Source: a virus
Taxonomy: Duplodnaviria; Caudoviricetes
Virus record (IMG/VR): IMGVR_UViG_3300021964_009400
Reading direction: 5' to 3' (one strand)
Length of the DNA stretch: 64,000 nucleotides
Both the position numbers and the translations under genes were made by a program. The notes under the pieces were generated by a model. The model was not told where the DNA came from and did not search any database. It saw only the letters and a program-made list of their open reading frames with translations. Below, one piece after another: positions 31,624 through 59,074 of the stretch (positions are counted from its first letter, which is position 1; each line of letters starts with the position of its first letter).

Positions 31624-31625
31624 AA

Positions 31626-34733: not shown

Positions 34734-35501
34734 ATGCCAAAGAAAAGAAGAAAAAAATCCAAAATATATTTCGGTACACCTGCGCAAGAAGCAATTATCG
34801 AATATAACAAATGTAAAGACCCGGTAGAGAGGTCTAAAATTTACGAGGAACGAATTAAATTTCCTTTTGAAAAATTGGCAGAGAATGTAATGAATACATT
34901 TAAATTTACTTATTTTGATGTGCCAAAAAAAGATGTTCAAATGGAAGTAGTTTCTGTTATGGTGGAAAAGATGCATATGTTTCAAGAAGGTAAAGGTAGG
35001 GCTTTTTCTTATTTTACTATTATTGCAAAGAACCATTTGATTTTAGCAAACAATGGTAATTACAAAAGATGGAAACAAAATTCTTTATTATCTCAAATGC
35101 CAGAAACCTGGAACCCTGAAAATGATTTTGTAAAAAAACAAGTAGATAATGAATTTAATGAATTTAAAAACATAATGTTAAAATATTGGGATAAAAACCT
35201 AAATATAGTATTTACAAAAAAAAGAGATTTACAGATTGCAGATTCTATACTTGAATTATTTAGAAGAAGTGAACATATAGAAAACTTTAATAAAAAGCAT
35301 TTATATCTACTTATAAGAGAGATGACTGATTGTAAAACTCATTACATCACCAAAGTTGTAAATGTAATGAAAAAACATCAGAAAAAACTTTTAAATGATT
35401 TTTTAGAATATGGAGAAATAATTGATGTAAAAAAATCTCCATTTTGGAAACAAGAAGAAGAGGTTGACGAAAATCCTTTTCTAGATAATGAATATTTGTA
35501 A
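34734..35501 (+). CDS. T4 gp55-like late-transcription sigma factor
   Basis: Region-2-like KLAENV..F.F.YFD and KGRAFSYFTIIAKN; ATG 34734. Confidence 0.7.
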   Translation: MPKKRRKKSKIYFGTPAQEAIIEYNKCKDPVERSKIYEERIKFPFEKLAENVMNTFKFTYFDVPKKDVQMEVVSVMVEKMHMFQEGKGRAFSYFTIIAKNHLILANNGNYKRWKQNSLLSQMPETWNPENDFVKKQVDNEFNEFKNIMLKYWDKNLNIVFTKKRDLQIADSILELFRRSEHIENFNKKHLYLLIREMTDCKTHYITKVVNVMKKHQKKLLNDFLEYGEIIDVKKSPFWKQEEEVDENPFLDNEYL

Positions 35502-37216
35502 TGAGTTATATTTTAGGAATAAGTTGTGGATATCATGATAGTGCAGCTGCATTAATTAAGGATGGAAAAGTTCTAGGTGCGTGTGAAGAAGAAAGATTTA
35601 CAGGCATCAAACACGATTATTCGTTTCCAAGTAACACTATTAATTGGTTACTAAAAACATATAATGTAGATAACGAAAGTATAAATGCAATATGTTTTTA
35701 TGAAATACCCAAACAAAAATTAGATAGAATAGAAGTTAGTACAAAAAAGAAACCTAAAAAATGGTATGATTTTTTTTCAAGTAAAGAAAATAAAATTTTA
35801 ACTAGAAATCAAGAATCATATGAAGTATTAAAAAAACAAATAAAAAATATTGCTGGTAAAAATACCAAAATATATTATACTGACCATCATCAATCCCATT
35901 TAGCATATTCATACTACACTTCAGAATTTCAAGATGCAGCAATTTTATCAGTAGATGGTGTGGGTGAATGGGAAACCACTTGCTTTGCACAAGGACATAA
36001 AAACAAAATCAAGAAATTACATAGTATAAACTTTCCACATTCATTAGGAATGTTATATTCTACCTTCACTGCCTTTCTTGGTTTCAAACCAAACGAAGGT
36101 GAATATAAAGTTATGGGATTAGCCCCATATGGCGATAACCAAAAGTATTTAAAAGAATTTAAACAACTATATAAAGTAAATTCAGAAGATGGTACATTCG
36201 AATTAAATATGGATTACTTTACTTATGAATATGATGATAAAAGTATGTTTAATGAAAAACTTGGAAAGTTATTTAAGATACCAAATAGATTGCCTGAAGA
36301 TGAATTAACCCAAGACCATAAAGATATTGCAGCTTGTCTACAAACTATATATGAGTTTTTATTTTTTAAATTATTAAATTCATTATATAAAAAAACCAAA
36401 TCAGAAAATCTTTGTTTAAGTGGTGGTTGTGCATATAATGGAACTGCTAATGGTAAAATTTTAACAAAAACAAAATTTAAAAAATTATACATACCACCAG
36501 CACCATCAGATGCAGGTTCTGCAATTGGTTGTGCATTAGATTATCATTATAAATCAAATGAAACAAGAGTATTAAACAACAATCCATATCTTGGTCCAAG
36601 TTATAATAAAGAAGAAATTTTGACTGCAATAGAAAAATATAAAGATGTTATATGGATAGAAACAAAATTATATGAACAAATTATTCCTGTTATAGCAAAA
36701 GAAATTAAAGAAGGAAATGTAGTTGGTTGGTTTCAAGGAAGAATGGAGTTTGGTGCTAGAGCATTGGGTAATCGTTCTATACTTGCGAATCCAAGAGACC
36801 CTCAAATGAAATCTCGATTAAATAAAATGATTAAAAAGAGAGAAGGGTTTAGACCTTTTGCTCCTATTGTAATAGAAGAACAATCTACATCTTATTTTAA
36901 ATATGATGATAAAGTTCCTTATATGAATCAAGTTGTAAAAGTAAAATCAGAACACATAGAAAACTTACCAGCCATAACTCATATTGATTCATCTGCAAGA
37001 ATACAAACTTTAAATAAACAACAACACAGATATATATATTCTTTATTACAAAGTTTAGAAGAAATAAATGGATATCCAATTGTTATTAACACTTCATTTA
37101 ATTTAAAAGACCAAACAATGGTTCTTACACCAGAAGATGCAATTAAAACATTTTTAAATTGTGAAATGGATATTCTAGTTCTTCACAATAATATTTTAAG
37201 AAAGAAAATCATTTAA
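35501..37216 (+). CDS. carbamoyltransferase (NodU/CmcH/TobZ family)
   Basis: GYHDSAAAL, EEERF, HHQSH, DGVGE, EGEYKVMGLAPYG, DAGSAIG, GARALGNRSILA, REGFRPFAP, NTSFN. Confidence 0.95.
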   Translation: MSYILGISCGYHDSAAALIKDGKVLGACEEERFTGIKHDYSFPSNTINWLLKTYNVDNESINAICFYEIPKQKLDRIEVSTKKKPKKWYDFFSSKENKILTRNQESYEVLKKQIKNIAGKNTKIYYTDHHQSHLAYSYYTSEFQDAAILSVDGVGEWETTCFAQGHKNKIKKLHSINFPHSLGMLYSTFTAFLGFKPNEGEYKVMGLAPYGDNQKYLKEFKQLYKVNSEDGTFELNMDYFTYEYDDKSMFNEKLGKLFKIPNRLPEDELTQDHKDIAACLQTIYEFLFFKLLNSLYKKTKSENLCLSGGCAYNGTANGKILTKTKFKKLYIPPAPSDAGSAIGCALDYHYKSNETRVLNNNPYLGPSYNKEEILTAIEKYKDVIWIETKLYEQIIPVIAKEIKEGNVVGWFQGRMEFGARALGNRSILANPRDPQMKSRLNKMIKKREGFRPFAPIVIEEQSTSYFKYDDKVPYMNQVVKVKSEHIENLPAITHIDSSARIQTLNKQQHRYIYSLLQSLEEINGYPIVINTSFNLKDQTMVLTPEDAIKTFLNCEMDILVLHNNILRKKII

Positions 37217-43438: not shown

Positions 43439-45463
43439 ATGGCATTAAATAGTTTAGATAGAAAACCAAATACTGGAAGAAATATAAAGTATCTTAATAA
43501 AGATTTTGCTCAATTTAGAGAAAATCTAATTCAGTATGCTAAAACTTATTTTCCAACAACCTATTCTGATTTTAATGAATCATCACCAGGTATGATGTTT
43601 ATAGAAATGGCATCTTATATTGGGGATGTTCTTTCTTATTATACTGATGATACTTTAAAAGAATCTTTAATTACAACTGCAGAAGATAGAGAAAATATTA
43701 TTGCACTTGCAGAGTATTTAGGATATAAACCAAAAGTAACTTCACCAGCAGTTGTAAAATTAGCAGTTTATCAAACAGTTCCTCCATTAGAAGCAGGAAC
43801 AACTAATGTTAGACCAGATGATAAATATTATTTAAGAGTTAAACAAGGAATGGTAGTTACTGCAACCATAGGCGACCAAAATTTTAGAACAACAGAGATA
43901 TTAGATTTTGCAGATGATAATGAAAGAGAAATTTCTGTTTACCAAACTGATGAAAATGGAGAACCTACGCTTTATTTAATAAAAAAATACATAAATGCAA
44001 TTTCAGGTGATTTAAAAACTATTACAAAAGATTTTGGTTCCACACCACAACAATTTGCAAAAGTATCATTGATTGAAAGTAATGTTGTTGATATCGTAGA
44101 TGTAAGAGATGAAAACAATAATAAGTGGTATGAAGTACCTTATCTTGCACAAGAAATGGTATTCACAGATTATGCAACAGGAGAGGCAAATGATAAAACT
44201 CTTGCACAATTTAAAGATAGTGTATCTAGTGTTTTAACAACACTAAAAACCTCAAGAAGATTTACAACAAAAGTAAATGCAAATAATACAACAACTCTTG
44301 TATTTGGTGCAGGTAATGCAACATCATCAGATGAACAACTAGTACCATCATTTAAAAATGTAGGATTGGGATTAAAATCATCTATTGATAAATTAGGTTC
44401 ATCATTTGACCCTGCTAACTTTTTGAAAACAACTTCATATGGACAATCACCAACTGGCACATTTACTATTCAATATGTAGTAGGTGGTGGAGTAGATTCA
44501 AATGTTGGTGTTGGTGAGTTAGTACAAATAGATAGAATAGAATTTGAAGATGATAGAGAAGTATTTTCAAGCGATGGAGAACGAATATTATTACAACAAT
44601 GTAAAAACTCAATAGCATGTGATAATGAACAACCTGCAACAGGTGGTAAAGGTGCAGATACAACAGAAGAAATTAGACAAAATGCATTGGCAAACTTTGG
44701 TACACAAAACAGAGCAGTAACAAGAAAGGATTATCAAGTAAGAGCATTATCACTACCATCAAAGTATGGTGGTATTGCAAAAGCATATTGTGCTCCTGAT
44801 GGAGAGTTAGATAATAACTCACCAAGTTCTATACTTACTGATAAAGATTCATTAGAAGAATTTGTAGGATTGGTAGAACAACTTAAAAATTCAGATTCAT
44901 CTGAAAAAGAAATTAAAGAAAGAGTTGTTCAATATCTAGGTGCTAAAAAGAAAAATGTAAATGAAAAAAATAATCCATTTGCTATTAACTTATATGTCTT
45001 GGGTTATGATTCTACAAAAGCTCTTACAACTTTAAATCAAGCAATAAAAGAAAATCTTAAAACTTATTTAAGTGAATATAGAATGTTAACTGATGGTGTT
45101 AATATAATAAATGGATTTATTATTAATATTGGTGTTGATTTTGAAATAAAAGTTTATAGTGGATACAATAAAAGACAAGTTCTTACACGAGTACAAATAG
45201 AATTAGAAAACTATTTTAATATAGATAATTGGACTTTTAATATGCCAATTAATATTTCTGAAGTTGAATTATTAATCGCAGGTGTAGAAGGAGTACAATC
45301 AGTACCAAAGTGTGAAATTACTAATAAATGTTTAGGAAACTATTCACAAAATTCATATAATATATCAGATGCAACTAAAGGTAAAATTGTTTACCCATCT
45401 TTAGACCCATCTGTATTTGAAGTGAAGTTTCCAAACAAAGATATAAGGGGGAGGGTAGTATAA
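43439..45463 (+). CDS. baseplate wedge subunit gp6 / baseplate J-like
   Basis: DFAQFRENL, IIALAEYLGYKP, GGKGADT.EEIR, QNRAVT..DY. Confidence 0.9.
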   Translation: MALNSLDRKPNTGRNIKYLNKDFAQFRENLIQYAKTYFPTTYSDFNESSPGMMFIEMASYIGDVLSYYTDDTLKESLITTAEDRENIIALAEYLGYKPKVTSPAVVKLAVYQTVPPLEAGTTNVRPDDKYYLRVKQGMVVTATIGDQNFRTTEILDFADDNEREISVYQTDENGEPTLYLIKKYINAISGDLKTITKDFGSTPQQFAKVSLIESNVVDIVDVRDENNNKWYEVPYLAQEMVFTDYATGEANDKTLAQFKDSVSSVLTTLKTSRRFTTKVNANNTTTLVFGAGNATSSDEQLVPSFKNVGLGLKSSIDKLGSSFDPANFLKTTSYGQSPTGTFTIQYVVGGGVDSNVGVGELVQIDRIEFEDDREVFSSDGERILLQQCKNSIACDNEQPATGGKGADTTEEIRQNALANFGTQNRAVTRKDYQVRALSLPSKYGGIAKAYCAPDGELDNNSPSSILTDKDSLEEFVGLVEQLKNSDSSEKEIKERVVQYLGAKKKNVNEKNNPFAINLYVLGYDSTKALTTLNQAIKENLKTYLSEYRMLTDGVNIINGFIINIGVDFEIKVYSGYNKRQVLTRVQIELENYFNIDNWTFNMPINISEVELLIAGVEGVQSVPKCEITNKCLGNYSQNSYNISDATKGKIVYPSLDPSVFEVKFPNKDIRGRVV

Positions 45464-46521
45464 TGTATTATTTTACAACGGCATCAAAAGATGCAACAAT
45501 TTATTTACAACAACCTACCCAAAATACAGGTAGAGATGAAATATTAGAAATATCAAAAGTTTATTATGGTAACCTAAAAGATATATCTCGTTCACTAATT
45601 AAATTTGATACAAATCTTTTATCACAATCCATAGCAAGTGGTGATGTTACTATGAGTAGTGCAGAACTTATTGTTAGAGAATGTGAATCAAATGAAATAC
45701 CAAATGAATATTCAATCTATGCATATCCTGTTTCTCAATCATGGGATGTGGGTATAGGAACAAGATTTGATGAAATATCAACCGATGGTGTTTCGTGGGA
45801 AAAAAGAAAAACATCAACAAATTGGTTAGTAGGTTCAGCATCTCTTGAAAGTTCTGGTTCATTTAATGGTAAAGGTGGTATGTGGTACACTGGTTCATAT
45901 GTAACACAATCTTTTAGTTATGAATCAGCAGATATTGTAATGGATGTACTAACCCCATTAAACACATGGATAAGTGGAACTTTACCCAACGAAGGCTTTA
46001 TATTAAAACACGATTCTGCAAAAGAAAATGATACTATTGATTATGGTCAATTAAAATTCTTCTCAAAAGAAACAAATACCATATACCAACCAAAGATAAG
46101 AATTGGTTGGGATGATTCTACATTTGTAACTGGTTCATTAACCGCATTAACTGCTGATGATATTCATGTAACTTTTAAAAGATTGAAAACTAGATACAAA
46201 GTTGGAAGTAAACCTGAAATCAGAGTTTTTGGAAGAGAAAAATATCCTCTAAAAACTTACACCAATCAATATTCTTATACTGATGTTTATTATTTACCAA
46301 CCTCTAGTTATTATCAAGTTAAAGATATAGTTACAGAGGAAATAGTTGTACCTTTTGGAGATTATACAAAATTATCTTGTGATTCAAATGGAAATTACTT
46401 TAAACTTAATTTAACAAATTGGGAATATAATAGAGATTATTATTTAGAAATTAAAATAGATAGAGATGGTGTAATTGAATATTTTACTGATAAGGATTTA
46501 ACTTTCACCGTAGAAAAGTAA
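45463..46521 (+). CDS. virion protein with DNRLRE-like beta-sandwich
   Basis: ASKDATIY..P.QNTG.DEIL, SRSLIKFD, NEGFILK, YQPKI. Confidence 0.6.
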   Translation: MYYFTTASKDATIYLQQPTQNTGRDEILEISKVYYGNLKDISRSLIKFDTNLLSQSIASGDVTMSSAELIVRECESNEIPNEYSIYAYPVSQSWDVGIGTRFDEISTDGVSWEKRKTSTNWLVGSASLESSGSFNGKGGMWYTGSYVTQSFSYESADIVMDVLTPLNTWISGTLPNEGFILKHDSAKENDTIDYGQLKFFSKETNTIYQPKIRIGWDDSTFVTGSLTALTADDIHVTFKRLKTRYKVGSKPEIRVFGREKYPLKTYTNQYSYTDVYYLPTSSYYQVKDIVTEEIVVPFGDYTKLSCDSNGNYFKLNLTNWEYNRDYYLEIKIDRDGVIEYFTDKDLTFTVEK

Positions 46522-46522
46522 T

Positions 46523-47713
46523 ATGGCATTAACTGATAAATTTAGAATTAACGAACTCACACAAAAAGGTTCCAAGGTAGAGAGAAGAGATTCTGCTGGT
46601 AGAATATCTGTGCGCAGGGTTGATGGTAAAGAAGTTAAACCAAAAAATCAAAAATCAGATAAAGATTTTGGTCAAGAAGTAATCAAATTAAAAAACAAAG
46701 ACCCTAGATTTAAATCAGAACTTAATGAGGTGGATATTACACCTAACGAAGAACAAATTTCTTTTAGTGGAGAATCTACTGGCTATGTAGAAAAACCAAA
46801 ATATAATGAAGAAGAATTAAAAAAAGCAATAGATGTTAAGGTTGATGAACTTATAAAAGAAAAAAAACCTAAACGAGGACCATATATTTTAAAATCAAAA
46901 TATGATGATTTAAGAAAAAAGTACGAAGATGCGTTAGAACAAATTGCAGATTTAAGGAGACAATTATCCGAAGCAAATGCTGAAATTCAAAGATTACAAG
47001 GAGTGATACAACAACTTGAGGTAGAAACCGATTCAGCAAAATTACAACAAGCAGCTGCAGAAAACGAATTACAAGCTGCAAATCAAAGATATATTACTTT
47101 ACTTAGTGATTTCCAACAGGCAATTACAAAAGGTACAAAGGAAGCAATTGAAAGAGTATCATTAGAAGCACAAGTAAGAGGTTTACAAGCACAGAAAGAA
47201 ACACTAATTAGAATAGAAGAACAAGAAGAAGCAGCACAAGAAGAAACGGCAATTAGAGCAAACTTAAGTGGACCTGATAATTCATATGACCAAAAAGGTG
47301 ATAGTGGTTGGAAAATTCCTGGTCCATTCGGAGATAACCAATTATTAGAAAAAGGTAATTTTTATTTTAGAAGTAATAGAAAATCTTCAGGTTGGAATGG
47401 TCAAGATAGTCTTGAATTATATAACTTTAATGAAGAACAAGAAATTAGTTATTCGATTACTATTCAAGCAGGAAGAGGTGGACATGGTTCTCCTTGGATT
47501 GGGTTCTCAAAGCAATCTGGTACAATACCACCAAGAAGTGGAGAAACACCTGGTAAGGTAACTTTAGATGCAAAAAAAGTAAGAAATGTAAACTCACCAA
47601 GAGGAAGAAAAAGAGAATTTATAGATGATATTAAACTTACTATTGGAGAAGAAAGTTATGATTTAACTGCATATTTCTATCGTAAACTACGAACTGGAGG
47701 AAAAGGTAATTAA
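46523..47713 (+). CDS. virion coiled-coil protein
   Basis: Long heptad region aa ~125-240 and a beta-rich C-terminus. Confidence 0.7.
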   Translation: MALTDKFRINELTQKGSKVERRDSAGRISVRRVDGKEVKPKNQKSDKDFGQEVIKLKNKDPRFKSELNEVDITPNEEQISFSGESTGYVEKPKYNEEELKKAIDVKVDELIKEKKPKRGPYILKSKYDDLRKKYEDALEQIADLRRQLSEANAEIQRLQGVIQQLEVETDSAKLQQAAAENELQAANQRYITLLSDFQQAITKGTKEAIERVSLEAQVRGLQAQKETLIRIEEQEEAAQEETAIRANLSGPDNSYDQKGDSGWKIPGPFGDNQLLEKGNFYFRSNRKSSGWNGQDSLELYNFNEEQEISYSITIQAGRGGHGSPWIGFSKQSGTIPPRSGETPGKVTLDAKKVRNVNSPRGRKREFIDDIKLTIGEESYDLTAYFYRKLRTGGKGN

Positions 47714-49437
47714 TGGCTATACAAGACTTTAAAGATATAGAAGGAAGAAAAGGCTATCTTGTTGAAAAAGAAGATAGAAAGATATTTCAAAAAGAAATAT
47801 CAAAGGCAAACTTTGGTCTTGGTTGTGCTGATATGATTGAGTTTATTCTTTATGATGTTAGTGATAACAAATTACCACAAGGAGATGATGGAAAATTAGT
47901 TCGTTATATACACCTTGATGATGCAAATATTTCAAAATACTTTTTAATATCAGATAATATTTTAACAAAAAAGAAAGGCGATGTACCAGAATTTGTTGTA
48001 GATTTAGAAACTCTTATTAGAGAAGCTGGATATAGTAATGGTATATTTAAAACACAAGTAACTCTTTTAAACAGAAGATTGGGTAACGAAGGTGATGAAA
48101 ATGATAAACTGTGGATACACGAAATATCTCCTTCACGAACTGAAATTAGAGTTTTACCAATAAGAGCAAAAAAAGAAAATAAAGATTTAGAAAAAAGATA
48201 TAATGTTTTTACAAATGAAGATACTTTTAGAGATGATGTAATTTATTATATTGAAAATTTTATTGAAAGTTTTGATTTACAAAAAATTATATCAACATTT
48301 TTACTTTCAAAGGGAAAAGAATCTGATGGAAAGCAATATATAAATAAAATCAAAAAAGAATTTAAAATTCAAAACTTTGAAATATTCATGTATCAAGTTG
48401 AAAGAAAACTTGTAGAATCAATGAAGTATTATGCAAACAAACGAGTTTGGAATATAAATGATGTAAATTATGGGAAACCATCTGAAGCACAAGATTGTAT
48501 AGAATTATCAATTAAGAAATTAAAAGAAGATACAATTACTGCATTAATTAATTCTATTGATTATCATTTACCAAAAAGAAATATTTTAGATAATAGTGTT
48601 TTAACTAAAGAAGAACAAATAACTTTAGATAAAGTAAAACAATTATTAAAAACTAGAACATCTAATAATATTTACCAAACAACAGAACCAGAGGTAGTAG
48701 TTAGAGGTTGTACAGACCCTAAAGCAACAAATTACAATGAAACTGCAACAACAGACGATGGTAGTTGTTTGTATGCAACTAGAATTACAATAAAAGGTTG
48801 TACTGATTCAGCAGCTTTAAACTATGACCCTAAGGCAACTGAAGATGATGGTAGTTGTCAATATCCAACACAACAAGAAAAGAAAAATTACTATATATGG
48901 TCTGATATAGCATCATTTCAGTATAGAGATGGGAGTGGTATTTTACAAACTATTAATGGAGTTGAATATGATTCATTCTCAGTAAATCAAGAAAAAGGAA
49001 GCTTAAATGTATTGAATGGAGATGTAAGAGAAGTTCCTAAATTATCAGTAGCCGTTAATACATATTTTTATATAATACGAAATGATTGGAATCAGCAAAA
49101 CTTATTTAATGGTGAAATAAACTTAGGAGTTGGACAAATTGGGAATGTAAGTTATATAGATGCAAGTGGAAGCCCTAAAAATTCAAGTCAAATTAGACCT
49201 GGAGAACAAATTACTATTTGTGCACAAGAAGATAGCATACATGGGGCACACTATTTAACAGTCAATAAAACTGGTCAATGTATTATAAATGATTTAGGAG
49301 CAGGTGATACTATAATTGGTAGTGGAAGAATTAAACCAATTTATTCGAACCAAGATACAGTTAGCGTTGCTAATGATAGAGATATAATATCAAGAGAAGA
49401 AATACTATTAAACATAACAGAAAGGAGTGATTACTAA
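47713..49437 (+). CDS. baseplate/virion protein with two GCTD-NY-DDGSC repeats
   Basis: IHEISPSRTEIRV; repeats at 48706 and 48796. Confidence 0.7.
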   Translation: MAIQDFKDIEGRKGYLVEKEDRKIFQKEISKANFGLGCADMIEFILYDVSDNKLPQGDDGKLVRYIHLDDANISKYFLISDNILTKKKGDVPEFVVDLETLIREAGYSNGIFKTQVTLLNRRLGNEGDENDKLWIHEISPSRTEIRVLPIRAKKENKDLEKRYNVFTNEDTFRDDVIYYIENFIESFDLQKIISTFLLSKGKESDGKQYINKIKKEFKIQNFEIFMYQVERKLVESMKYYANKRVWNINDVNYGKPSEAQDCIELSIKKLKEDTITALINSIDYHLPKRNILDNSVLTKEEQITLDKVKQLLKTRTSNNIYQTTEPEVVVRGCTDPKATNYNETATTDDGSCLYATRITIKGCTDSAALNYDPKATEDDGSCQYPTQQEKKNYYIWSDIASFQYRDGSGILQTINGVEYDSFSVNQEKGSLNVLNGDVREVPKLSVAVNTYFYIIRNDWNQQNLFNGEINLGVGQIGNVSYIDASGSPKNSSQIRPGEQITICAQEDSIHGAHYLTVNKTGQCIINDLGAGDTIIGSGRIKPIYSNQDTVSVANDRDIISREEILLNITERSDY

Positions 49438-52400
49438 TGGCAGATAATAACGAAACTTTATTGTCTACAAATTCAACTAGTGGTACAACTCCAAAAAAGA
49501 TTGTTGACAACATAGCTGTCTTTGATACAAGTGGAGTTGGTACTACCATATTGACAAATAATTTAGTACCTAAAGCCGGTCAATTACCAATAAACAATTT
49601 AAATATTAATAACTTGGTATTGCCTATCAATAAAGGTTGTATGGATAGGTCAGCGTTAAATTACAATCCATTAGCAACTGTTGCCGATAATACAAGTTGT
49701 ATATATTCAACAAATATAGAAAATCCACTTTCGTTAAGTCCAAACTTAACAGTTGTTGTTAAATCAAATAGAGAATCGCAAATAATCATTGATGGTAATG
49801 ATTCACAACAAAGAACTACTGCTACATTTAATTATTCTGCGAAAGAATTGTTAAGTGGTAAAACATTTACAGTTAGAGCAAGTGAAAACTTTAAATCAAA
49901 TGATACATACAAAATTGCTGCAGTACAAAAAAGTTTTTTAAAAAATCTTAAACCAATTGTACCAGTTGAAAATTTTGAAATTGAATTAAATGAAAGAAGA
50001 TTAAATGATTTAGAAACTTTAAGACCTTTAGAAATTGGTAGTGTTAAATATTCTTATTATGAATTTCAAGTATTAAAAAATGGAAAACCATTTAAAACAT
50101 TCGAACTTGATTATAGAAATTTATTAGAAAATAGATTAGTAGAACTGAGTTTTAATCTTGAGAGTGATGGTATAAGAATAGACCCATCATCAGTTGGTAC
50201 TAATGTTTTAATCACATCTAATGTATCTTCAAATGATATAATAAGATATAAAACATCAACTGGTCAAAGTGATTTTTTACTTACAGATGACGAGGTAGAA
50301 TTACAACTTTCACGAAACTCATCAGATACACCATTATTTATTGAGTTTTTTGGTGTTGGTATAGATGATACAACACATACAGTAACTTATACATTTGATA
50401 CTCCAAACAATAGAGCAAAAAAAGTTGTAACTAATATTGATTACAAAATTGAATTACAAGAAGGTACTACAAATATAATCGTAGATGCAATAAAAATACC
50501 ACGAGTAAAACCACCATCTATACCTCTTTTAAATGTAAGTTCAAATCAATTCAAGTATAATATCAATGATAAAAACCCATTAAAAATAGTTTACAAAACT
50601 GTCAATGCTGATATTGTTGAATACTCATTAGGAAAATTAAAAAGAGAAATTGGACCAAATGGTAGTATTACTTTAAGTAGTAACGATTTTTCAAATGGTG
50701 TTGGTTCATATACCTTGTACCTACAACCAATAAATAAAGCAGGTGTTGGTGATATTGAAAAGGTTAGTATTATAGTTGAGAGTAAAGAATATTTACCAGG
50801 ACCGGATATTACAAACATAAACTATCCACAGAGTATTAAAGGTGCAGATTTCAAAGAATTTAATGTTCCATTTGATATTAGTTGGCAATCTATTAATACA
50901 GATTATATTAGAGTTTACGCTGGAAAGTATAACCCACAAGCAGAAAAAGATTTCTTTTTAGGACAGTTTTCTAAAACAGGCAATGCAAGATTTACAGTTG
51001 AAGATGTTTTAAGAGCTGCGAAAAGACAGTTTGATGAAGATGATAACATATTACAATTCCAATTATTCTTAATACCATTTAATGCACAAGGAGATGAATT
51101 AACTTCTGGTAAAGTAGAAAAGATAACAATTACTTTTGATAAAGGAGATTTAACTTTAAGAAGGGGAGATGTTATTGGTGATATTAGAAAAGCGTTTGAA
51201 TATTGTTTTGATTATTCAACCTTTGATGAAAGCACATCAACTCTTTTAACTCATTATTTACATCTTGGAGAAGGTGATAATAAATTAATATCAACTTATG
51301 GTATTGATACAGAAACATTTTCAGAGTACGAATTTATAAACGATACAAATGAAAGAAAAAAGATAAAAGAATCTAAATCCATTGTTTTAAAACTATACGA
51401 ACCACTAGATGGTGCAATCGATGTAAATGATAAGATATGGATTTCTAAAATTCAATCTATACCATTAATAGACCAGATAACAATTATAGATGATGTAACT
51501 ACAAATTGTATTCCTCTAACACCAAATTTAAGTTTAGAGTTAAACGATGATATTGGTTATCAAATTTATGATGAATTGGTTGCAAGTGGTTCGACATCAT
51601 CAGAATCAGTAATACAAGAATTTGTATCAGGTAGTGGATTTTCATTAGATACACTTCAGTTAGAATATACATCGGGTAGTGCAATACAATGGGGTAATTT
51701 TGTAAAATATTCATCTGCAAAAGAAAGAGTTGCAAACTTCTATTACAAAATCAAGTTATTAGAATCATATAGAAGTAAACACGAGTTACTAGCAACTGCA
51801 ACTGGTTCTGCAGGCTCAGTTTCAAGTCAAAACGAACAAAAAAGAATACTTGGAAAGATATCAGAAATTAAACAAAACTTCGATGCATTTGAAAAACATC
51901 TTTATACAGTAAGTGGTTCATTACAATATCCAAAAAGTGGAAGTGTTGTTGGTGATATTAAACTTACTAATACTGGTAGTTTATTAAATCCAACTGGCTC
52001 TGATGCAATTAATTGGTATAACGATACTTATGCAACTGCATCTTTATATGATAGAAATAATACAGAAAGATTAGTAAATAATTTGCCTATTCATATACAA
52101 GAAGATGATAAAGGACAAGAGTTTGTTTTATTCTTTGATATGATTGGACAGCATTTTGATATTTTATATCACTATATTAATAGATTATCAAAATCTAAAA
52201 AAGCTGAAAATAAATTTAAAGATGGAATTATAAGTGATTTAATGTATGAAATGTTAAGTTCACTTGGTTGGGATGCTGATTTAGGAATATCATCTGAAAC
52301 TCTTTGGGAATATGCATTTGGTGAACATTCAGATGGTACTCAAGTTTCTACAATGTCAGGTAAAGATAGACAACAAGAAACATGGAGAAGAATTTTAAAT

Positions 52401-54653
52401 AACTTACCTTATCTATATAAACACAAAGGTACTAAGAGGGCAATTCATGCAGCATTATCGATATATGGAATTCCAAATTCTATGTTAACAATAATGGAAT
52501 TTGGTGGACCAAAAGATAACACCACTTCAAGATTAGTTAAATATACATACGATGATACAACATCTGCATTAAATATTTCTGGTTCTCAACAACTTATTAT
52601 TCCTTGGAAAGCATATACTGGTTCTTTGTATCCAAGTTCTGTTGAAGTAAGAGTTGAAACTAATACAAAACAATCTCAAACATTACTTTCAAGTAGTGGT
52701 TGGAGTTTAGATTTAAATTACATATCGGGTTCAGATGCAAAATTACAATTAAATGTATTATCTGGTTCAACTTACTATTCAGAATCAACAGACCAATTTC
52801 CTTATTTTAATCAAGATTATACACAGATAGTTGTAAATAAAACATCTGGTTCATCTACCACATTTGAAGTATTTGCAAAAGAAGGATTCCAAGAAAGAAT
52901 TAGAAATCAAGTAAGTGCATCACTTACACTTACAAATCATAGTTGGGATACCGGTACAGAATTATTAATTGGTGGTTTGGGTGTTAGTGGTAGTTCATTT
53001 ACTGGTTCAGTAGATGAAATTAGATTATGGAAAACTCCACTATCACAATCAAGAATTGATAATCATGCATTGAATGGAGATGCAATAGATGGTAACCATT
53101 CATCTTCCTCAACTGAAGATTTATTATTAAGAGTTGATTTTGAACATCCACGAAATTTAGATTCAACTGGTAGTAATTGGAGAAACACACTTGTTTCAGC
53201 ATCTATGGTTTCGGATGGATTAAGTTCATTATCAGGTTCATTAGAAAGTGTTTCCCCAATAACAACTTATGCAAACTTTATAACTGCATCTAATTTCCCA
53301 TCTGCTTCATATCCATATGGATTTACATTTTATGATAGAAAAAATACATCAAATGTACCAAGTGTTGGTTTAAGTGTTGGTGATAAAATTAGGTTTGAAA
53401 CACAAACTTTAGAATCAGATTTAAATTACAGAAGTAGAGCAACTAAAAAATCATATGACCAATCACCATTAGACTCGGATAAATTAGGATTATTCTTCTC
53501 ACCAGCAAAAGAATTAAATCTTGACATTGTAAAAACAATAGGAGATTTTAGTATAGATGATTTAATCGGTGACCCAAGTGATTATTATGAAGATAGTTAT
53601 TCATCATTAAATAATTTTAGAAATTACTATTTTAGTAGATATAATGTAAACTTCTCTGAATATATTCAATTAGTAAAGTATATTGATAAATCCTTATTTA
53701 AACTTTTAGAATCTCTTGTACCTGCAAGAGCCAAAGTTACAACTGGTTTATTGATAGAACCTCACATGCTAGAGAGAAGTAAAATTAAAAGAACAAAACC
53801 TACTGCAGAAAATAAACAATATGAAACTTCAATTGGTATTCAAGATAATTTAGTTGTAACATCATCAAAAGATGATTACTTAGTTGAACTTGATTTAAAA
53901 GAAGAAGTGTTCTTAAGTGGTTCAAAGGATTCATATGAAGTTGAAATACAAAATGTAGTAAGTAGTAGTTTGGTAGGAACAAACGATACCTACGAAAGCA
54001 TAATTTCAGCATCAGATAATTATGTTACTACTGGTGATATTACTAGAAACTCTGGTTCAGATATGGCAGGATTTGATATTACAATCGAAGCAACAATATC
54101 TCAATCAGTACAAGGTGAGTATGATTCAACTGCATATGAACAAATAGGAATGGAACCAGACTCATTAACAGTAGCTGGCTTTGGTTTATATGGTAGTGGT
54201 TCACATACAATTATTACAAAATTAGATAAAAACAATAACTTTGTTAGAGAAAGAGCTAAAGTATTTTTAATTAAAGAATCATATACAGTTAATGTACCAA
54301 AATTATTAAATTCAGCATCTTTATATACAGAATTGGAAACAGTAACTAAGTTTAGACATAAAGTAAATATTTTACCATTTACTGGCTCTGATGGAAATGA
54401 AACATCTGGCTCAGTTGTAGGTGGTAATATTGTAGAGGTAACTCCATTAAATGGTGCATTTCCAACACATTATATAACCACTGGTGATTTAACAACTGGT
54501 CTAGAAAATTCATTCTTTAATGGTTCAAAACAAACTGCAGCAACTACATTAGATGGTAGTTCACCAGTTCAATCATTTACTACAAACCCAAATACATTAA
54601 AAGTTTCTGATAGTGGTAGAGGTAGTGGAGAGCCAATTTTAGAGGTAGAATAG
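49437..54653 (+). CDS. large baseplate wedge/tail protein (gp7/P2 gpI-like core plus LamG-like domain)
   Basis: WRRILNNLPYLYKHKGTKRAI..ALSIYG; FTGSVDEIRLW LamG-like motif; 1738 aa. Confidence 0.75.
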   Translation: MADNNETLLSTNSTSGTTPKKIVDNIAVFDTSGVGTTILTNNLVPKAGQLPINNLNINNLVLPINKGCMDRSALNYNPLATVADNTSCIYSTNIENPLSLSPNLTVVVKSNRESQIIIDGNDSQQRTTATFNYSAKELLSGKTFTVRASENFKSNDTYKIAAVQKSFLKNLKPIVPVENFEIELNERRLNDLETLRPLEIGSVKYSYYEFQVLKNGKPFKTFELDYRNLLENRLVELSFNLESDGIRIDPSSVGTNVLITSNVSSNDIIRYKTSTGQSDFLLTDDEVELQLSRNSSDTPLFIEFFGVGIDDTTHTVTYTFDTPNNRAKKVVTNIDYKIELQEGTTNIIVDAIKIPRVKPPSIPLLNVSSNQFKYNINDKNPLKIVYKTVNADIVEYSLGKLKREIGPNGSITLSSNDFSNGVGSYTLYLQPINKAGVGDIEKVSIIVESKEYLPGPDITNINYPQSIKGADFKEFNVPFDISWQSINTDYIRVYAGKYNPQAEKDFFLGQFSKTGNARFTVEDVLRAAKRQFDEDDNILQFQLFLIPFNAQGDELTSGKVEKITITFDKGDLTLRRGDVIGDIRKAFEYCFDYSTFDESTSTLLTHYLHLGEGDNKLISTYGIDTETFSEYEFINDTNERKKIKESKSIVLKLYEPLDGAIDVNDKIWISKIQSIPLIDQITIIDDVTTNCIPLTPNLSLELNDDIGYQIYDELVASGSTSSESVIQEFVSGSGFSLDTLQLEYTSGSAIQWGNFVKYSSAKERVANFYYKIKLLESYRSKHELLATATGSAGSVSSQNEQKRILGKISEIKQNFDAFEKHLYTVSGSLQYPKSGSVVGDIKLTNTGSLLNPTGSDAINWYNDTYATASLYDRNNTERLVNNLPIHIQEDDKGQEFVLFFDMIGQHFDILYHYINRLSKSKKAENKFKDGIISDLMYEMLSSLGWDADLGISSETLWEYAFGEHSDGTQVSTMSGKDRQQETWRRILNNLPYLYKHKGTKRAIHAALSIYGIPNSMLTIMEFGGPKDNTTSRLVKYTYDDTTSALNISGSQQLIIPWKAYTGSLYPSSVEVRVETNTKQSQTLLSSSGWSLDLNYISGSDAKLQLNVLSGSTYYSESTDQFPYFNQDYTQIVVNKTSGSSTTFEVFAKEGFQERIRNQVSASLTLTNHSWDTGTELLIGGLGVSGSSFTGSVDEIRLWKTPLSQSRIDNHALNGDAIDGNHSSSSTEDLLLRVDFEHPRNLDSTGSNWRNTLVSASMVSDGLSSLSGSLESVSPITTYANFITASNFPSASYPYGFTFYDRKNTSNVPSVGLSVGDKIRFETQTLESDLNYRSRATKKSYDQSPLDSDKLGLFFSPAKELNLDIVKTIGDFSIDDLIGDPSDYYEDSYSSLNNFRNYYFSRYNVNFSEYIQLVKYIDKSLFKLLESLVPARAKVTTGLLIEPHMLERSKIKRTKPTAENKQYETSIGIQDNLVVTSSKDDYLVELDLKEEVFLSGSKDSYEVEIQNVVSSSLVGTNDTYESIISASDNYVTTGDITRNSGSDMAGFDITIEATISQSVQGEYDSTAYEQIGMEPDSLTVAGFGLYGSGSHTIITKLDKNNNFVRERAKVFLIKESYTVNVPKLLNSASLYTELETVTKFRHKVNILPFTGSDGNETSGSVVGGNIVEVTPLNGAFPTHYITTGDLTTGLENSFFNGSKQTAATTLDGSSPVQSFTTNPNTLKVSDSGRGSGEPILEVE

Positions 54654-54693
54654 TATTTATAGGTAATAAAAATTATTAAAAATATAAATCGTT

Positions 54694-54702
54694 ATATTTA
54701 TA
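54694..54702 (+). promoter_or_regulatory. putative late promoter ATATTTATA
   Basis: Intergenic in the structural module. Confidence 0.65.
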
Positions 54703-54728
54703 TATTGTAACATAATAGGGAAAAAACT

Positions 54729-55352
54729 ATGGCATATTTAGATAATACAGAAATAACAGTAGATGCAATTCTTACTAAAAAAGGTAGAGAGAAACTTGCA
54801 TCGGGTGAAGGTCTTAATATCACCAAGTTCGCTTTAGGTGATGATGAGATTGATTACACATTATACGAACCGGCACACCCAAAAGGTTCAGCATACTATG
54901 ATGCAGCAATTAAAGCAATACCAATAACTGAAGCATCGCCAGATGAAACGCAAATTTTAAGATATAAATTAGTTACTCTTCCAAAGGGTACTACAAAAAT
55001 TCCAAAGGTAGAATTTGGTGTACCATCTATTTCTGTAAATCAGAATTCAGGTCAAGTTTCCCTTACACCAACTACATCACCAAGTGGAAATACACAAAGT
55101 GGATATACCGTAGTTTTATCAAATAAAAATGCAGGTAGTATTGTTGGAGCAGGTTTATCGGGTGTTGCAAGTTCAGTACCAACATTCTTAGGAGATGAAA
55201 TAACTGCAACAGCAGCAATAGAGACAGGATTAACATTTACATTTATACCTAATCCAAATATAACTGCTACAATTGCAACAACAATTACAGTATATGGTAA
55301 TGAAACTGGAGGTTCAGCAACGATACCAGTAACAATAACATATGTATCATAA
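54729..55352 (+). CDS. tail-collar/fibre-attachment-like virion protein
   Basis: ILTKKGREKLA...ITKFALGD resembles the N-half of the P2 gpH-type (DUF3751) domain; Ig-like C-terminus. Confidence 0.6.
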   Translation: MAYLDNTEITVDAILTKKGREKLASGEGLNITKFALGDDEIDYTLYEPAHPKGSAYYDAAIKAIPITEASPDETQILRYKLVTLPKGTTKIPKVEFGVPSISVNQNSGQVSLTPTTSPSGNTQSGYTVVLSNKNAGSIVGAGLSGVASSVPTFLGDEITATAAIETGLTFTFIPNPNITATIATTITVYGNETGGSATIPVTITYVS

Positions 55353-55372
55353 TTTAAAGAGGAAATAATAAA

Positions 55373-56602
55373 ATGGCACAAATACAAGGACAAGCAGGAG
55401 TAAATTTGACACAAGAGTTGGCAAATTATTTAGATGCCAGTGGTGGTAGTCTTACTTCAGAACAATTATCAACGATTATCAACCAATATCTTTCAGGTGG
55501 TGATAAACTAGGTGCAACTGGTGGTTCAATTTCAAATGGTATATATAAAAGATTTGGAGAATTTGACCAAGTAAGTGGAAAAGTACAAGTTGTAACTACT
55601 GGTCTTTGGAGTGGAGATACTGGTTCCTTAACTACATTTTTTACTTCATCTACACAAGCTTCAGCAAATAGTTCAAATTATTATGTAAATGTATATGATA
55701 CTGCAGCTAATGATAATGTACAATTTGCAGTTGCATATGGACATAAATTTGGTAGTGGTTCAGTATCACTTGCAAATGATGATACATCTACTTTAGCAAC
55801 TAAAGCAACTTACGCACAATATAAATCAATTCTTTTAGACCAAGATGATACTAAATTTGTAGTTCCTAACATTTCTGGTTCAACTCAAGAAATAGATGAT
55901 ATCTTTGTTATTAACTTATCAAGAGCAAGATACAAAGAGAAAATGGATGCAGGAAACTGGTCATTAACATTAAATGGAGAAAGTGGTTCATTTACATTCA
56001 TTGATGATAGTGGAAAGAAATTTTCAGATACAGTTGGAAAAGCAGGTAGAGTATTTGATGTAGTAAAGGGTTCACTAAACTTAGGTTCAGAAAACGAAGC
56101 AACAATTGAATCAAAATATGCAAGTGGTTCCGATGCACAAGGACAAGGATTTGGTAAATTTTATCCAGACCAAGGAATTATAATTCTCAACCCAAAGGCT
56201 ATTCAAGATGAACTAAAAACATTTCCAAGAAATGCAGCAGGTGCAGTATCACAATCGTTATCATATGGAATTGCATCAGAAGCAAAAAATCATTTCTTAT
56301 TAGAAAGTGCAATTTCAGGTGGAGGAGATTTTGAAGCAAGAAGAACAGAAAATGTTTCTACATCACACTATTTTGTAAGAGCAACGAATAGAGAATTTAA
56401 CTTCTCAAATAACCCAACATTTGTAAGTGGTTCAGATAATTCATTTGCTGAATCATCTTTTGAAAAAGACCCAAAAACATTTATTACAACTATTGGATTA
56501 TATAGTGATTCAAACGAAATATTAGCAGTGGCTAAAACATCACAACCAATCGCTAAATCATTTGATAAAGAAGTATTAATCAAAGTAAAACTTGATTTCT
56601 AA
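55373..56602 (+). CDS. virion structural protein (paralog of 56683)
   Basis: C-terminal ITTIGLY....ILAVAK..QPI.K; GKFYPDQGIIIL; EFNFSNNP. Confidence 0.7.
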   Translation: MAQIQGQAGVNLTQELANYLDASGGSLTSEQLSTIINQYLSGGDKLGATGGSISNGIYKRFGEFDQVSGKVQVVTTGLWSGDTGSLTTFFTSSTQASANSSNYYVNVYDTAANDNVQFAVAYGHKFGSGSVSLANDDTSTLATKATYAQYKSILLDQDDTKFVVPNISGSTQEIDDIFVINLSRARYKEKMDAGNWSLTLNGESGSFTFIDDSGKKFSDTVGKAGRVFDVVKGSLNLGSENEATIESKYASGSDAQGQGFGKFYPDQGIIILNPKAIQDELKTFPRNAAGAVSQSLSYGIASEAKNHFLLESAISGGGDFEARRTENVSTSHYFVRATNREFNFSNNPTFVSGSDNSFAESSFEKDPKTFITTIGLYSDSNEILAVAKTSQPIAKSFDKEVLIKVKLDF

Positions 56603-56622
56603 AATTATTAAACTTTAATAAG

Positions 56623-56647
56623 AACCCCACTTCGAGTGGGGTTTTTT
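56623..56647 (+). terminator. intrinsic terminator
   Basis: AACCCCACT-TCG-AGTGGGGTT plus T-run. Confidence 0.85.
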
Positions 56648-56655
56648 GTTTTAAT

Positions 56656-56664
56656 ATATTTATA
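56656..56664 (+). promoter_or_regulatory. putative late promoter ATATTTATA
   Basis: Right after the terminator, before ORF 56683. Confidence 0.65.
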
Positions 56665-56682
56665 TAGAGGAGCAATACTATC

Positions 56683-57822
56683 ATGTTAAAACCAATACCT
56701 AAATCGAGTATAAATCAAAGAACTTTTAAAGTTCACAAAAAGTTTATACAAACAGATGCAACTAATCCAATTTATATTGGTGCTTTATCTAGTGGTAGTG
56801 CATACGATTCTGGTTCAGAGGCAACTACAAATGGTGTTTCTAATCATTCTTTATATGCATCTATAAAATCTAAATATTATAGAAATGATGGTAATATATT
56901 TACCACCTATGGTAATTATGGTAATTTAGGACAAATTTCACAAGAAAGAATTATTGGTGGTCAAATTAGAGTTATTACAATTCCACAAAATAAAAAAGGA
57001 TTAGGAATTAAAAAAGGTAGTGTACTTTTAACAGATATAGATACATCAACTGTTTACAGAGATACTGGTGAAGGAAATATAGCATCTCTAACACCACGAT
57101 ACACCTTAACAGAACTTGATTTTAATACTGGTGTTATAACAATTACTGATGCAGATGACCAGAATTTTACTGGTACCATAACAAGTATCGATTTTAATAC
57201 AGGTAACTCAGTATTAACATTTGGAGTAGAAACCAAAGATGTTACAATTACTCAACTTGATTTTAATACAGGTATTTTATTGACAGCTGAACCTTTAGAT
57301 TTTGATGGTTTGGATATCGATGAGGCAAGATATGGAAATATATTTTATTCAGATGGATTAATAGTTTTATCAGATGTTACAAGTTTAGTTTCATATAGTT
57401 TAGAGTATCGTTCAACTGAAACAATAACAGAACAAGAAGTTTTACTTACTGCAAAAGCAGGAGAGTTTAACTATTCTCAAAACCCATCGGCAGTTGAATC
57501 ACAATTAAGTGGTTCATATGATTTTACAACTACTGCAATACCAAATGTTTCTTCGGCAAGAACAAGAAAAATAAAAGAGTATAGTGATATAAAACGAAGA
57601 GAATTTTTCTCTGGTTCTTTTAACTCAACAATAAGTGGTAGTTGGGATGATTATTATGCATCTGCATCAGTAGATACAACTGGTTCATATTTATCAACAT
57701 ATATTAGTACAATTGGATTATATGATAAAAGTGGAGATATGGTAGCCGTTGCTAAACTACCAAAACCAATAAAGAATTTACCAGACTACGATGTAAATTT
57801 TATAGTAAGATTTGATGTATAA
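56683..57822 (+). CDS. virion structural protein (paralog of 55373) with DFNTG repeats
   Basis: ISTIGLY....MVAVAKL.KPIK; GNIFYSDGLIVL; EFNYSQNP. Confidence 0.7.
   Translation: MLKPIPKSSINQRTFKVHKKFIQTDATNPIYIGALSSGSAYDSGSEATTNGVSNHSLYASIKSKYYRNDGNIFTTYGNYGNLGQISQERIIGGQIRVITIPQNKKGLGIKKGSVLLTDIDTSTVYRDTGEGNIASLTPRYTLTELDFNTGVITITDADDQNFTGTITSIDFNTGNSVLTFGVETKDVTITQLDFNTGILLTAEPLDFDGLDIDEARYGNIFYSDGLIVLSDVTSLVSYSLEYRSTETITEQEVLLTAKAGEFNYSQNPSAVESQLSGSYDFTTTAIPNVSSARTRKIKEYSDIKRREFFSGSFNSTISGSWDDYYASASVDTTGSYLSTYISTIGLYDKSGDMVAVAKLPKPIKNLPDYDVNFIVRFDV
57115..57273 (+). repeat. three intragenic GATTTTAATAC(T/A)GGT repeats (DFNTG)
   Basis: Copies near 57118, 57190 and 57259, spaced 72 and 69 nt. 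Confidence 0.75.
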
Positions 57823-58492: not shown

Positions 58493-59074
58493 TTGAGTTT
58501 ACTTATAAACCATTACTCAAAATGGGCATTCGTTCATATACCAAAAACTGGTGGAACATCATTAACAAACATTTTATTAAAAGATAAAAATACCGAACAA
58601 GTTTCGGTGCACGATTCTTTAAGAATGTTAGATGCTGATTCCTCTTACTATATTTTTACAATAGTAAGAAATCCATTTACTCGAATATGTAGTGCTTTTG
58701 AAGATGAGTATAGAAAAGGAAATACCAAACACGATTTTAGCTTTTATCTAAAAAATATTGACGAAACAAATGTTTGGTTGTTACCTCAAAGTTACTTTAT
58801 TGAGGCGGGAAAAACAAAAAATAAAAAAGTTTCATTCATAGGAAGATATGAAAACTATGATACTGATTGTAATCAAATTTTACAAAAATTAAAATATTCA
58901 GAAAAAATTCCGCATCTTAACCGAAATCCAATATATGATAGACATCCAAATTTAAATCAAGAACAGTATTATAGTAAAATATATTACACAGAAGATTGGA
59001 TGATAGATTGGGTAAAAGAAAGGTACGAAAATGATTTTAAAATTCTTAACTATGGCATGGAATTACCAAGGTAG
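58493..59074 (+). CDS. sulfotransferase family 2 (carbohydrate sulfotransferase-like)
   Basis: FVHIPKTGGTS, FTIVRNPF.R..SAF, LLPQ, FIGRYEN. Confidence 0.88.
   Translation: MSLLINHYSKWAFVHIPKTGGTSLTNILLKDKNTEQVSVHDSLRMLDADSSYYIFTIVRNPFTRICSAFEDEYRKGNTKHDFSFYLKNIDETNVWLLPQSYFIEAGKTKNKKVSFIGRYENYDTDCNQILQKLKYSEKIPHLNRNPIYDRHPNLNQEQYYSKIYYTEDWMIDWVKERYENDFKILNYGMELPR

Follow-up and report, generated by a model that had tools for sequence, protein, structure and literature searches.

The 64,000-nucleotide stretch of DNA analysed here (the window; IMG/VR virus record IMGVR_UViG_3300021964_009400, Caudoviricetes) encodes baseplate and tail proteins in which the tripeptide [S/T]-G-S, hereafter [ST]GS, occurs far more often than their composition predicts. 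This enrichment is real, acts at the protein level and is confined to the outward-facing tail, that is, to the fibres, the outer baseplate and the outer sheath, and the tripeptide is a short surface motif that is selected in its own right. As to its role, the comparison of sequences gives, in our judgement, an even chance that [ST]GS is a hairpin-tip acceptor site for O-glycosylation of the tail by enzymes that the phage itself encodes.

Enrichment in a subset of tail proteins

The source of the window is a large T4-related phage. Its G+C content is about 29%, the genes are nearly all on one strand, and the phage markers include a gp6-like wedge protein, a CHAP-domain spike-like protein, PhoH and thymidylate synthase, accompanied by MetK, UvdE, a primase and SbcCD. 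Proteins identical to those of the window were found on marine contigs from JGI and ENA (the longest, Ga0610007_00126 of JGI 3300066022, of 278,535 bp), and the phage group has thousands of homologues in ocean metagenomes. A complete relative in IMG/VR (G001; 275,970 bp) shows 81.5% nucleotide identity over 46 kb of the window. An extended set of 94 kb was assembled from the window plus 30 kb downstream, and includes a 2430-residue (aa) tail fibre whose gene starts just past the window.

We scored [ST]GS in all 62 open reading frames (ORFs) of the window against a composition-based expectation (Table 1). Hand counts made in a previous sequence-only reading of this DNA, which had singled out five rich proteins, turned out to be nearly exact. 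In the largest of them, a 1738-aa protein, every [ST]GS and [ST]AS lies from residue 717 on, and the counts for the 409-aa and 379-aa tail proteins and the Hint-domain protein were likewise reproduced; for the 352-aa baseplate protein four sites had been reported and the recount differs, while its enrichment stands. The absence of the motif from gp6, the spike, the helicase, the primase, MetK, the carbamoyltransferase and the radical SAM enzyme was also confirmed. Together the five rich proteins carry 43 [ST]GS against 5.4 expected, and SGS is their most enriched tripeptide (32 against 3.1 expected, Poisson p about 1e-21). The other 57 ORFs hold two sites, one TGS (ORF 15695) and one SGS (ORF 47713), against about 6 expected.

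With the tail fibre (26 against 6.5 expected) the six tail proteins reach 69 sites against 11.9 (p about 7e-30), and a first-order Markov model, in which the excess of SG and GS is already absorbed, still leaves 69 against 34, or about twofold. Checked over the ORFs of the 94 kb, the signal therefore survives both the correction for composition and a dipeptide-aware model. The remaining 83 ORFs of the 94 kb (23,148 aa) are mildly depleted, with 3 sites against 9.4 expected (P = 0.016); such a depletion might be expected if a cytoplasmic enzyme acted on the motif and off-target sites were avoided.

A signal in the protein sequence

The rich proteins are 10-13% Ser, and it could be argued that chance, a Ser/Gly-rich composition, a repeated domain or a nucleotide motif produced the counts. 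This explanation is refuted for practical purposes. A composition or dipeptide artefact is ruled out by an excess that is six- to ten-fold over composition and two-fold over the dipeptide-aware model, and a DNA-level motif by the 21 codon combinations with which the 43 window sites are written, the preference for GGT being modest. The pattern moreover recurs in hundreds of homologues and in three distant lineages. Spread by domain duplication was also ruled out, since an all-against-all BLASTP of the SGS-rich proteins disclosed a single shared module, the C-terminal 110 aa of the 409- and 379-aa proteins; without other domains in common, the motif must have arisen many times independently.

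The preference is sharp at each of the three positions. Among the SGx tripeptides of the six proteins, 48 of 84 are SGS and just 5 are SGT; among the 103 xGS tripeptides the first residue is S in 48 and T in 21 (69 in total), with N and D under-represented; and G takes the middle of 48 of the 128 SxS tripeptides. Hydrophobic residues (L, I, V, F and Y) are enriched in the flanks, in an alternating pattern that is weak, and Asp is raised 1.6-1.8-fold at some flanking positions only. Avoidance of deamidation-prone Asn-Gly turns was considered and ruled out, as NG has an observed/expected ratio of 0.82-1.04, similar to that in T4. Since neither NG nor DG is depleted, SGS was added to these proteins and did not replace the classical turns.

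Homologues of the window proteins show how the sites evolve. More than 850 homologues of the 1738-aa protein in marine metagenomes have a mean of 12 sites against 2.3 expected (range 6-20). Its sites 717, 1097, 1189, 1539 and 1649 persist in 63-97% of 115 homologues, and the others turn over while the overall density is maintained, often being exchanged with SSS, SAS, TSS or NGS. Turnover in the 409-aa family is similar, sites 83, 128 and 352 being retained in at least 82% of 119 homologues. A GSGS at aa 127-130 of the 409-aa protein is present in all relatives except RM378, and an SGS near aa 232 of the family, where this phage has KGS, extends to relatives as distant as RM378. This conservation in distant relatives indicates that part of the signal is old structure.

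Distribution across the virion and related phages

For an unbiased view we scanned all 241 plus-strand ORFs of at least 100 aa in the complete relative G001, with Bonferroni correction. They contain 200 [ST]GS against 84 expected, and six ORFs pass the threshold. The enriched set consists of the Hint protein (5 against 0.56), the block of baseplate and fibre proteins, a second cluster of fibre proteins encoded at 123.8-146 kb (41 against 12, 32 against 7.4, 9 against 1.4 and 5 against 0.5) and, more mildly, the sheath (5 against 1.26), and of nothing else. Across this phage and G001, large proteins carry 22-41 sites each. The terminase and the packaged polyprotein have none, and the major capsid protein, portal, tube, protease and gp6 have 0-1 (0 in the capsid protein and tube of G001).

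The genomes compared were those of this marine clade (G001), Microcystis phage Mel-JY01, Flavobacterium phage immuto, LR756508, RM378 and T4, and the first three are the enriched lineages. Mel-JY01 and immuto present the same pattern, with enrichment in baseplate, fibres, spikes and sheath, and SGS and TGS by far the commonest Gly-centred tripeptides. In immuto, whose host is Flavobacterium sp. LMO8, the tail spike gp101 has 26 sites and gp056 has 12; the fibre ORFs of Mel-JY01 are at 635-10,000. The sheaths of G001, immuto (gp041) and Mel-JY01 have 5, 7 and 4 sites, all of them confined to the variable portion (N-terminal and middle), the conserved C-terminal core having none; by analogy with T4 gp18, the variable part probably faces outward. 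T4 shows no enrichment, either in 16 structural proteins of baseplate and fibre (7 against 10.3 expected) or genome-wide (16 against 25), and this control rules out a general property of myovirus fibres. Enrichment is weak in RM378. The uncultured phage LR756508 (484 kb) keeps the gene order from gp6 to the fibre and shows no enrichment apart from the old conserved sites, with none in the sheath. With the baseplate-to-fibre order in common and the enrichment absent, LR756508.1 is a natural negative control. A core-gene tree places G001, Mel-JY01 and immuto together (support 69), with LR756508, RM378 and T4 outside.

Glycosyltransferases that track the enrichment

Immuto and Mel-JY01 share a syntenic cassette of glycosyltransferase (GT) genes in the order GT4, GT4, GT2, with sugar-modifying genes behind it. 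The three GT genes recur in G001 at 204.7-208.8 kb, where they precede an epimerase, a UDP-sugar dehydrogenase, a CgeB-like GT, an NTP-transferase and a WecE aminotransferase. Identity of the three GTs to those of immuto is 43-48% in G001 and 37-43% in Mel-JY01, and the corresponding values for gp6 and the capsid protein are 37-54%. The enriched phages infect hosts of different phyla, and a cassette that is nonetheless conserved nearly like gp6 and the capsid suggests a phage-intrinsic substrate.

Mel-JY01 has 51 ORFs in common with both immuto and G001. Of these, LR756508 lacks only PhoH, the GT2 and the second GT4 of the cassette, and three matches that are weak and partial, namely a tape-measure-like low-complexity sequence, a 60-aa match and the GT4 domain of a Mel-JY01 fibre-cluster protein. 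The GT4 and GT2 pair corresponds to gp180 and gp178 of immuto. LR756508 keeps the first, gp181-like GT4 and has no gp180-like GT4; PF00535 (GT2) was found neither there nor in T4, and GT2 has the same distribution as GT4 among the six genomes. No orthologue of the gp180-like GT4 was found beyond the three enriched lineages in 50,697 phage records, and a broad protein search with the immuto GT4 returned immuto-like sequences only. Among the relatives compared, enrichment tracks the GT4 and GT2 pair, albeit on one branch of the tree. A degenerate-looking cassette and the weak enrichment in RM378 give weak hints of a second event, a loss in LR756508, on which we do not lean.

In samples with 30-68-kb contigs of the phage of the window, the cassette assembles only as 4-6-kb contigs; a GT4 with 84% identity, from the same sample as this phage, sits on such contigs only. 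This suggests strain-level microdiversity or rearrangement at the locus.

A further enzyme was found in Mel-JY01, where a 1227-aa ORF annotated as hypothetical (PP395634.1 4747-8430) combines a GT4 domain with a C-terminal TibC-family domain. It adjoins SGS-rich fibre ORFs on both sides and has no SGS of its own. The domain matches TibC (PDB 4RAP) with an E-value of 1.4e-69 over TibC residues 23-383, the catalytic Asp and the Cys motifs being aligned, so that the protein is predicted from its sequence to be a true TibC-type protein-serine heptosyltransferase. Enzymes of the TibC family act in the cytoplasm and heptosylate Ser, not Thr, in Ser-Gly and Ser-Ala turns of beta-helix adhesins (PMC4358343). 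A tblastn search for a TibC/GT9 homologue gave no match in the 94 kb of this phage. As the domain is found neither in G001 nor in immuto, it is not the common cause of the trait; its place in the Mel-JY01 fibre cluster shows that glycosylating the fibres is a live option for phages of this kind.

Glycan genes around the tail genes

One of the two sulfotransferases that the sequence-only reading had recognised in the window, as well as the carbamoyltransferase and the FkbM methyltransferase, were confirmed by family matches (Table 1), and 2-oxoglutarate (2OG) oxygenases are also encoded. The sulfotransferase gene lies 670 nt downstream of the SGS-rich genes, with three small ORFs between. Four ORFs had been called GT-like. 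Those at 8, 4226 and 60479 (searched as 2-679, 4196 and 60479) have no Pfam or PHROGs match, and the designation is not confirmed for them; the one at 13341 has none either, and retains lead-level support as a GT-A fold from ESM Atlas (score 0.95 to GT8/GT6/Nucleotid_trans clusters).

A glycan island lies directly 3' of the tail fibre gene. It begins with DUF6734, a methyltransferase, a weak GT2-like ORF and two GT7 genes with an inserted LamG, and further contains a cytidylyltransferase, a radical SAM enzyme, a free LamG protein, three epimerases and RmlC. The two GT7 enzymes match beta4GalT1 and beta4GalT7 (E 1e-22 and 5e-21). Their LamG lectin-like domain is inserted after the catalytic motifs, and LamG is also present in the SGS-rich part of the 1738-aa baseplate protein. 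Several island ORFs had no Pfam or PHROGs match, no exporter was found among the called island genes, and no GT in the 10 kb upstream of the window. In G001, 4 nt separate the last gene of the second SGS-rich fibre cluster from a 331-aa ORF that precedes the sheath gene; this ORF is GT-B-like by ESM Atlas (0.97) and has no Pfam match.

Five unrelated ORFs of tailoring type end in a similar basic-hydrophobic tail (Table 1), and no structural ORF does. This C-terminus could be a common targeting or docking tag.

Table 1. Motif-carrying proteins, contrast proteins and candidate glycan enzymes of the window and the adjoining island (expected counts in brackets; coordinates are those of the window unless prefixed L007)
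Feature	Coordinates	Strand	[ST]GS observed (expected)	Remarks
1738-aa baseplate/tail protein	49437..54653	+	22 (2.5), plus 7 [ST]AS	N-terminal 716 aa motif-free; residues 717-1659 (nt 51585-54413) rich
352-aa baseplate protein	45463..46521	+	3 (0.45), plus 2 [ST]AS	Directly 3' of the gp6 homologue
409-aa tail/baseplate protein	55373..56602	+	6 (0.97)	Highly conserved; paralogous family
379-aa paralogue of the 409-aa protein	56683..57822	+	6 (0.73), plus 1 SAS	C-terminal 110 aa in common
596-aa Hint-domain protein	11393..13183	+	6 (0.77), all SGS, plus 1 SAS	Mainly aa 309-432
gp6-like baseplate wedge protein	43439..45463	+	0	Inner virion protein; internal contrast
207-aa Thr-rich protein	54729..55352	+	0	Conserved in all relatives; contrast
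Sulfotransfer_2-family sulfotransferase	58493..59074	+		E 2e-15; candidate glycan-tailoring enzyme
Possible GT-A-fold glycosyltransferase, 217 aa	13341..13994	+		Adjoins Hint gene; lead only; C-terminus KKSLV
NodU/CmcH-type carbamoyltransferase	35501..37216	+	0	E 8e-75, 3e-66; just upstream of the baseplate operon; candidate glycan-tailoring enzyme; C-terminus RKKII
FkbM-family methyltransferase	31587..32411	+		E 2e-12; candidate glycan-tailoring enzyme
Radical SAM enzyme	2067-3875			C-terminus KKKLM
2OG oxygenase	13970-14488			C-terminus KKILM
Sulfotransferase-like protein	15695-16324			C-terminus KKSII
GT7 (beta-1,4-galactosyltransferase-like)	L007:13080-14501			About 11.7 kb past the window end
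GT7 (beta-1,4-galactosyltransferase-like)	L007:14905-16374			About 13.5 kb past the window end

Among the proteins of Table 1, the 352-aa baseplate protein has orthologues in Mel-JY01, immuto and LR756508. The 409/379-aa tail family has 2-5 paralogues each in Mel-JY01, immuto, LR756508 and RM378, and its C-terminal module consists of a TT[IV]GLY core, then AVAKL-KP and a hydrophobic end of the VK[LF]D type; no match to the family was found in Pfam, PHROG, PDB or Foldseek. A 408-aa protein of the window (21745-22971) is unusually conserved (53-62% identity to immuto, and also in Mel-JY01) and was considered as a trait-linked gene, then dropped since LR756508 and RM378 have it too. No family match was found for it.

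Location of the sites and rival explanations

The AlphaFold model for residues 700-1310 of the 1738-aa protein contains a confident LamG-type sandwich, with a predicted local distance difference test score (pLDDT) of 80-93 and five sites in the LamG segment (aa about 1030-1210); Laminin_G_3 matches a LamG-like beta-sandwich in the same region (aa about 1033-1200, E 8e-4). Sites 1048, 1097, 1109 and 1137 are 2-3-residue turns joining antiparallel strands of this model, a hairpin-tip location that fits the surface exposure expected by the sequence-only reading. The model of the 409-aa protein is poor (pLDDT 54), and a Foldseek comparison of it with PDB returned no match. PDB was also searched by sequence and by profile, with the 409-aa family, the 1738-aa protein and its 700-1310 segment as queries, and gave no useful match either; the sole match of the tail fibre was a T4-type fibre tip. 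Some sites of the 1738-aa protein fall in predicted helical regions.

The sequence-only reading had allowed that the sites are just tight beta-turns, and this is the rival that deserves most attention. S/T-G-S fits what is known of residue preferences in type II' beta-turns (Gly in position i+1, Ser in i+2 and Ser or Thr as the cap at i), and the strand-turn-strand location of such turns is seen in the LamG model. The tripeptide would then be this lineage's preferred type II'-like turn in fast-evolving beta-rich tail proteins, and would be left unmodified. The four modelled hairpin turns agree with this, as do the alternating hydrophobic flanks, which resemble beta-strands, and the sites shared with LR756508 (GSGS, which RM378 alone lacks) or with both LR756508 and RM378 (the SGS near aa 232), conserved as structural positions would be. 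However, the orthologous hairpins of LR756508 have unrelated residues at the same positions and no enrichment, so that the fold does not require SGS, and the beta-rich tail proteins of T4 are not enriched. N and D, which are good turn formers, are disfavoured before Gly, and Thr is nearly excluded from the third position; neither this residue pattern, nor the restriction to the tail of one clade, nor the absence from LR756508 is predicted by general turn statistics. The mild depletion in the rest of the proteome is not accounted for, sites in predicted helix or replaced by SSS or SAS in homologues are a poor fit to an obligatory Gly turn, and the co-distribution with GT4 and GT2 is left unexplained. 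We therefore consider a purely structural role unlikely, though it deserves to be taken seriously.

Two other explanations accept that the sites are exposed and give them another function. The serine might be phosphorylated, acylated, ADP-ribosylated or directly sulfated by another enzyme of the phage or the host; residue specificity and surface exposure would be the same, many tailoring enzymes are encoded (sulfotransferases, 2OG oxygenases, radical SAM), and several of these have the KK-x-hydrophobic C-terminus. Yet neither a kinase nor an ADP-ribosyltransferase came up in the stretches that were examined, GTs are the sole enzymes that track the trait across genomes, and the single enzyme found in a relative whose protein specificity is known belongs to the glycosyltransferases, all of which makes such a modification very improbable. 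We give equally little credence to a recognition motif, in which SGS tips would be contacted by a lineage-specific assembly chaperone or would serve as anion- or sugar-binding loops for weak adhesion to host polysaccharide. Many exposed hairpin tips per protein on receptor-facing proteins would suit this role, but no candidate chaperone tracks the trait, the positions of the sites change freely, which would be unusual for a defined docking site, and a loop of three small residues is a poor binding determinant.

Proposed glycosylation at hairpin tips

The reading that we favour is that [ST]GS is an acceptor sequon, as already proposed from the sequence. Under this proposal the tripeptide would mark beta-hairpin tips on fibres, outer baseplate proteins and outer sheath domains, phage-encoded cytoplasmic GTs would O-glycosylate a serine at these tips while the tail proteins are folding or once they have folded, ahead of assembly, and the result would be a tail with a sugar coat. 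The coat might shield the tail from proteases or antibodies, promote adhesion or mimic the host surface. Enrichment at the protein level with a sharp preference for Ser, many independent origins at a maintained density, the location on outward-facing tail parts, the nearby glycan genes without an exporter, the absence from the orthologous hairpins of LR756508, which lacks the GT4 and GT2 pair, and the TibC-family enzyme in the fibre cluster of Mel-JY01 speak for the proposal, as does the correlation across genomes, which comes from a single branch. That a serine is modified and which one, the initiating enzyme, the identity of the glycan, the action of the sulfo-, carbamoyl- and methyltransferases and the function of the coat are all inferred.

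Several points weigh on the other side. The support comes from sequence comparison and structure models. The sites are hairpin turns in the only confident model, and on that model a structural role would be sufficient to explain their location. The three enriched lineages form one clade, so the correlation with GT4 and GT2 amounts to one evolutionary event. The cassette, which could act on DNA or on the host envelope instead, was seen in G001 and on small contigs from samples that also contain this phage, and could not be assigned to the contig of the window itself. Among the GTs found in this phage none is of a recognised protein-initiating kind, its GT7 and putative GT10 enzymes are of chain-elongating types, and PF01075 (TibC/GT9) was found in none of G001, immuto, LR756508 and RM378. 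Finally, the Hint protein, which is a candidate virion component only, bears the motif too.

Comparison with known systems and significance

In the serine-rich repeat adhesins of Gram-positive bacteria, a cytoplasmic GT4-type GtfA/GtfB starts O-GlcNAc on serines with small neighbours, in S-A-S-type repeats of a fibre at the cell surface, and other GTs extend it. Those acceptors are long low-complexity tandem repeats, whereas here isolated tripeptides are set in folded domains. The sequence-only reading had invoked the glycosaminoglycan attachment of proteoglycans, which shares the Ser-Gly context and proceeds by a xylosyltransferase, beta4GalT7 and sulfotransferases, so that its linker and tailoring-type enzymes resemble some of those present here (two GT7, Sulfotransfer_2 at 58493). 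This analogy proved weak, as the flanks are hydrophobic rather than acidic. The GT7 genes are not common to the other enriched lineages, and no xylosyltransferase (GT14) came to light, though no search aimed at it was made.

Another likeness is to the bacterial autotransporter heptosyltransferases (TibC/TibA and Aah/AIDA-I), in which a cytoplasmic enzyme modifies many Ser, not Thr, in Ser-Gly and Ser-Ala turns of a beta-rich adhesin (PMC4358343). Here too the candidate sites are many, Ser-biased and in short inter-strand turns of surface proteins. The systems differ in that TibC/GT9 is not found in this marine clade or in immuto, where the candidate enzymes are GT4, GT2 and GT-B, and in that the putative substrates are phage tail proteins of varied folds with a sharper tripeptide instead of a beta-helix passenger. 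Mycobacteriophage GTs encoded beside structural genes decorate virion proteins in the cytoplasm, with shielding proposed as the role, according to the account of Freeman et al. 2023 (Cell Host Microbe) given in PMC12619734. GT genes adjoin structural genes in the present phages as well, in the island after the fibre and, at the level of an ESM Atlas match, in the GT-B-like ORF of G001. In contrast to the C-terminal Ser/Thr-rich tails of capsid and tail-tube subunits that this account describes, capsid and tube have 0-1 motifs here, and the candidates for modification are hairpin tips within the fibre, baseplate and sheath proteins.

The observation as it stands is that dozens to hundreds of exposed sites on the tails of this phage group are marked by a sharply defined tripeptide. 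To our knowledge, phage virion glycosylation is documented essentially only for the mycobacteriophage capsid and tube tails, and we know of no short acceptor motif for any phage. If the sites are glycosylated, [ST]GS would be the first sequence-readable predictor of phage tail glycosylation, and the large "LPS/cell-wall" (lipopolysaccharide) gene islands of marine phages would have to be reread as virion-coat factories. A more far-reaching version, which we regard as improbable, is that the tail of these T4-related phages, an abundant aquatic clade, is built like a proteoglycan, with a defined hairpin-tip tripeptide as viral sequon. GT4 and GT2 would start the glycan, GT7/LamG and fucosyltransferase-like enzymes would extend it, sulfo-, carbamoyl- and methyltransferases would tailor it, and the coat would decide adsorption, shielding or persistence in a major group of marine viruses. 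Should the motif be structural only, it would represent an unusual lineage-specific turn "dialect", of note for fibre engineering. Two enriched relatives, immuto and Mel-JY01, are in culture, which makes the question directly testable, and glycosylation, if true, would bear on adsorption, on resistance to proteases and grazing and on the antigenicity of these phages.

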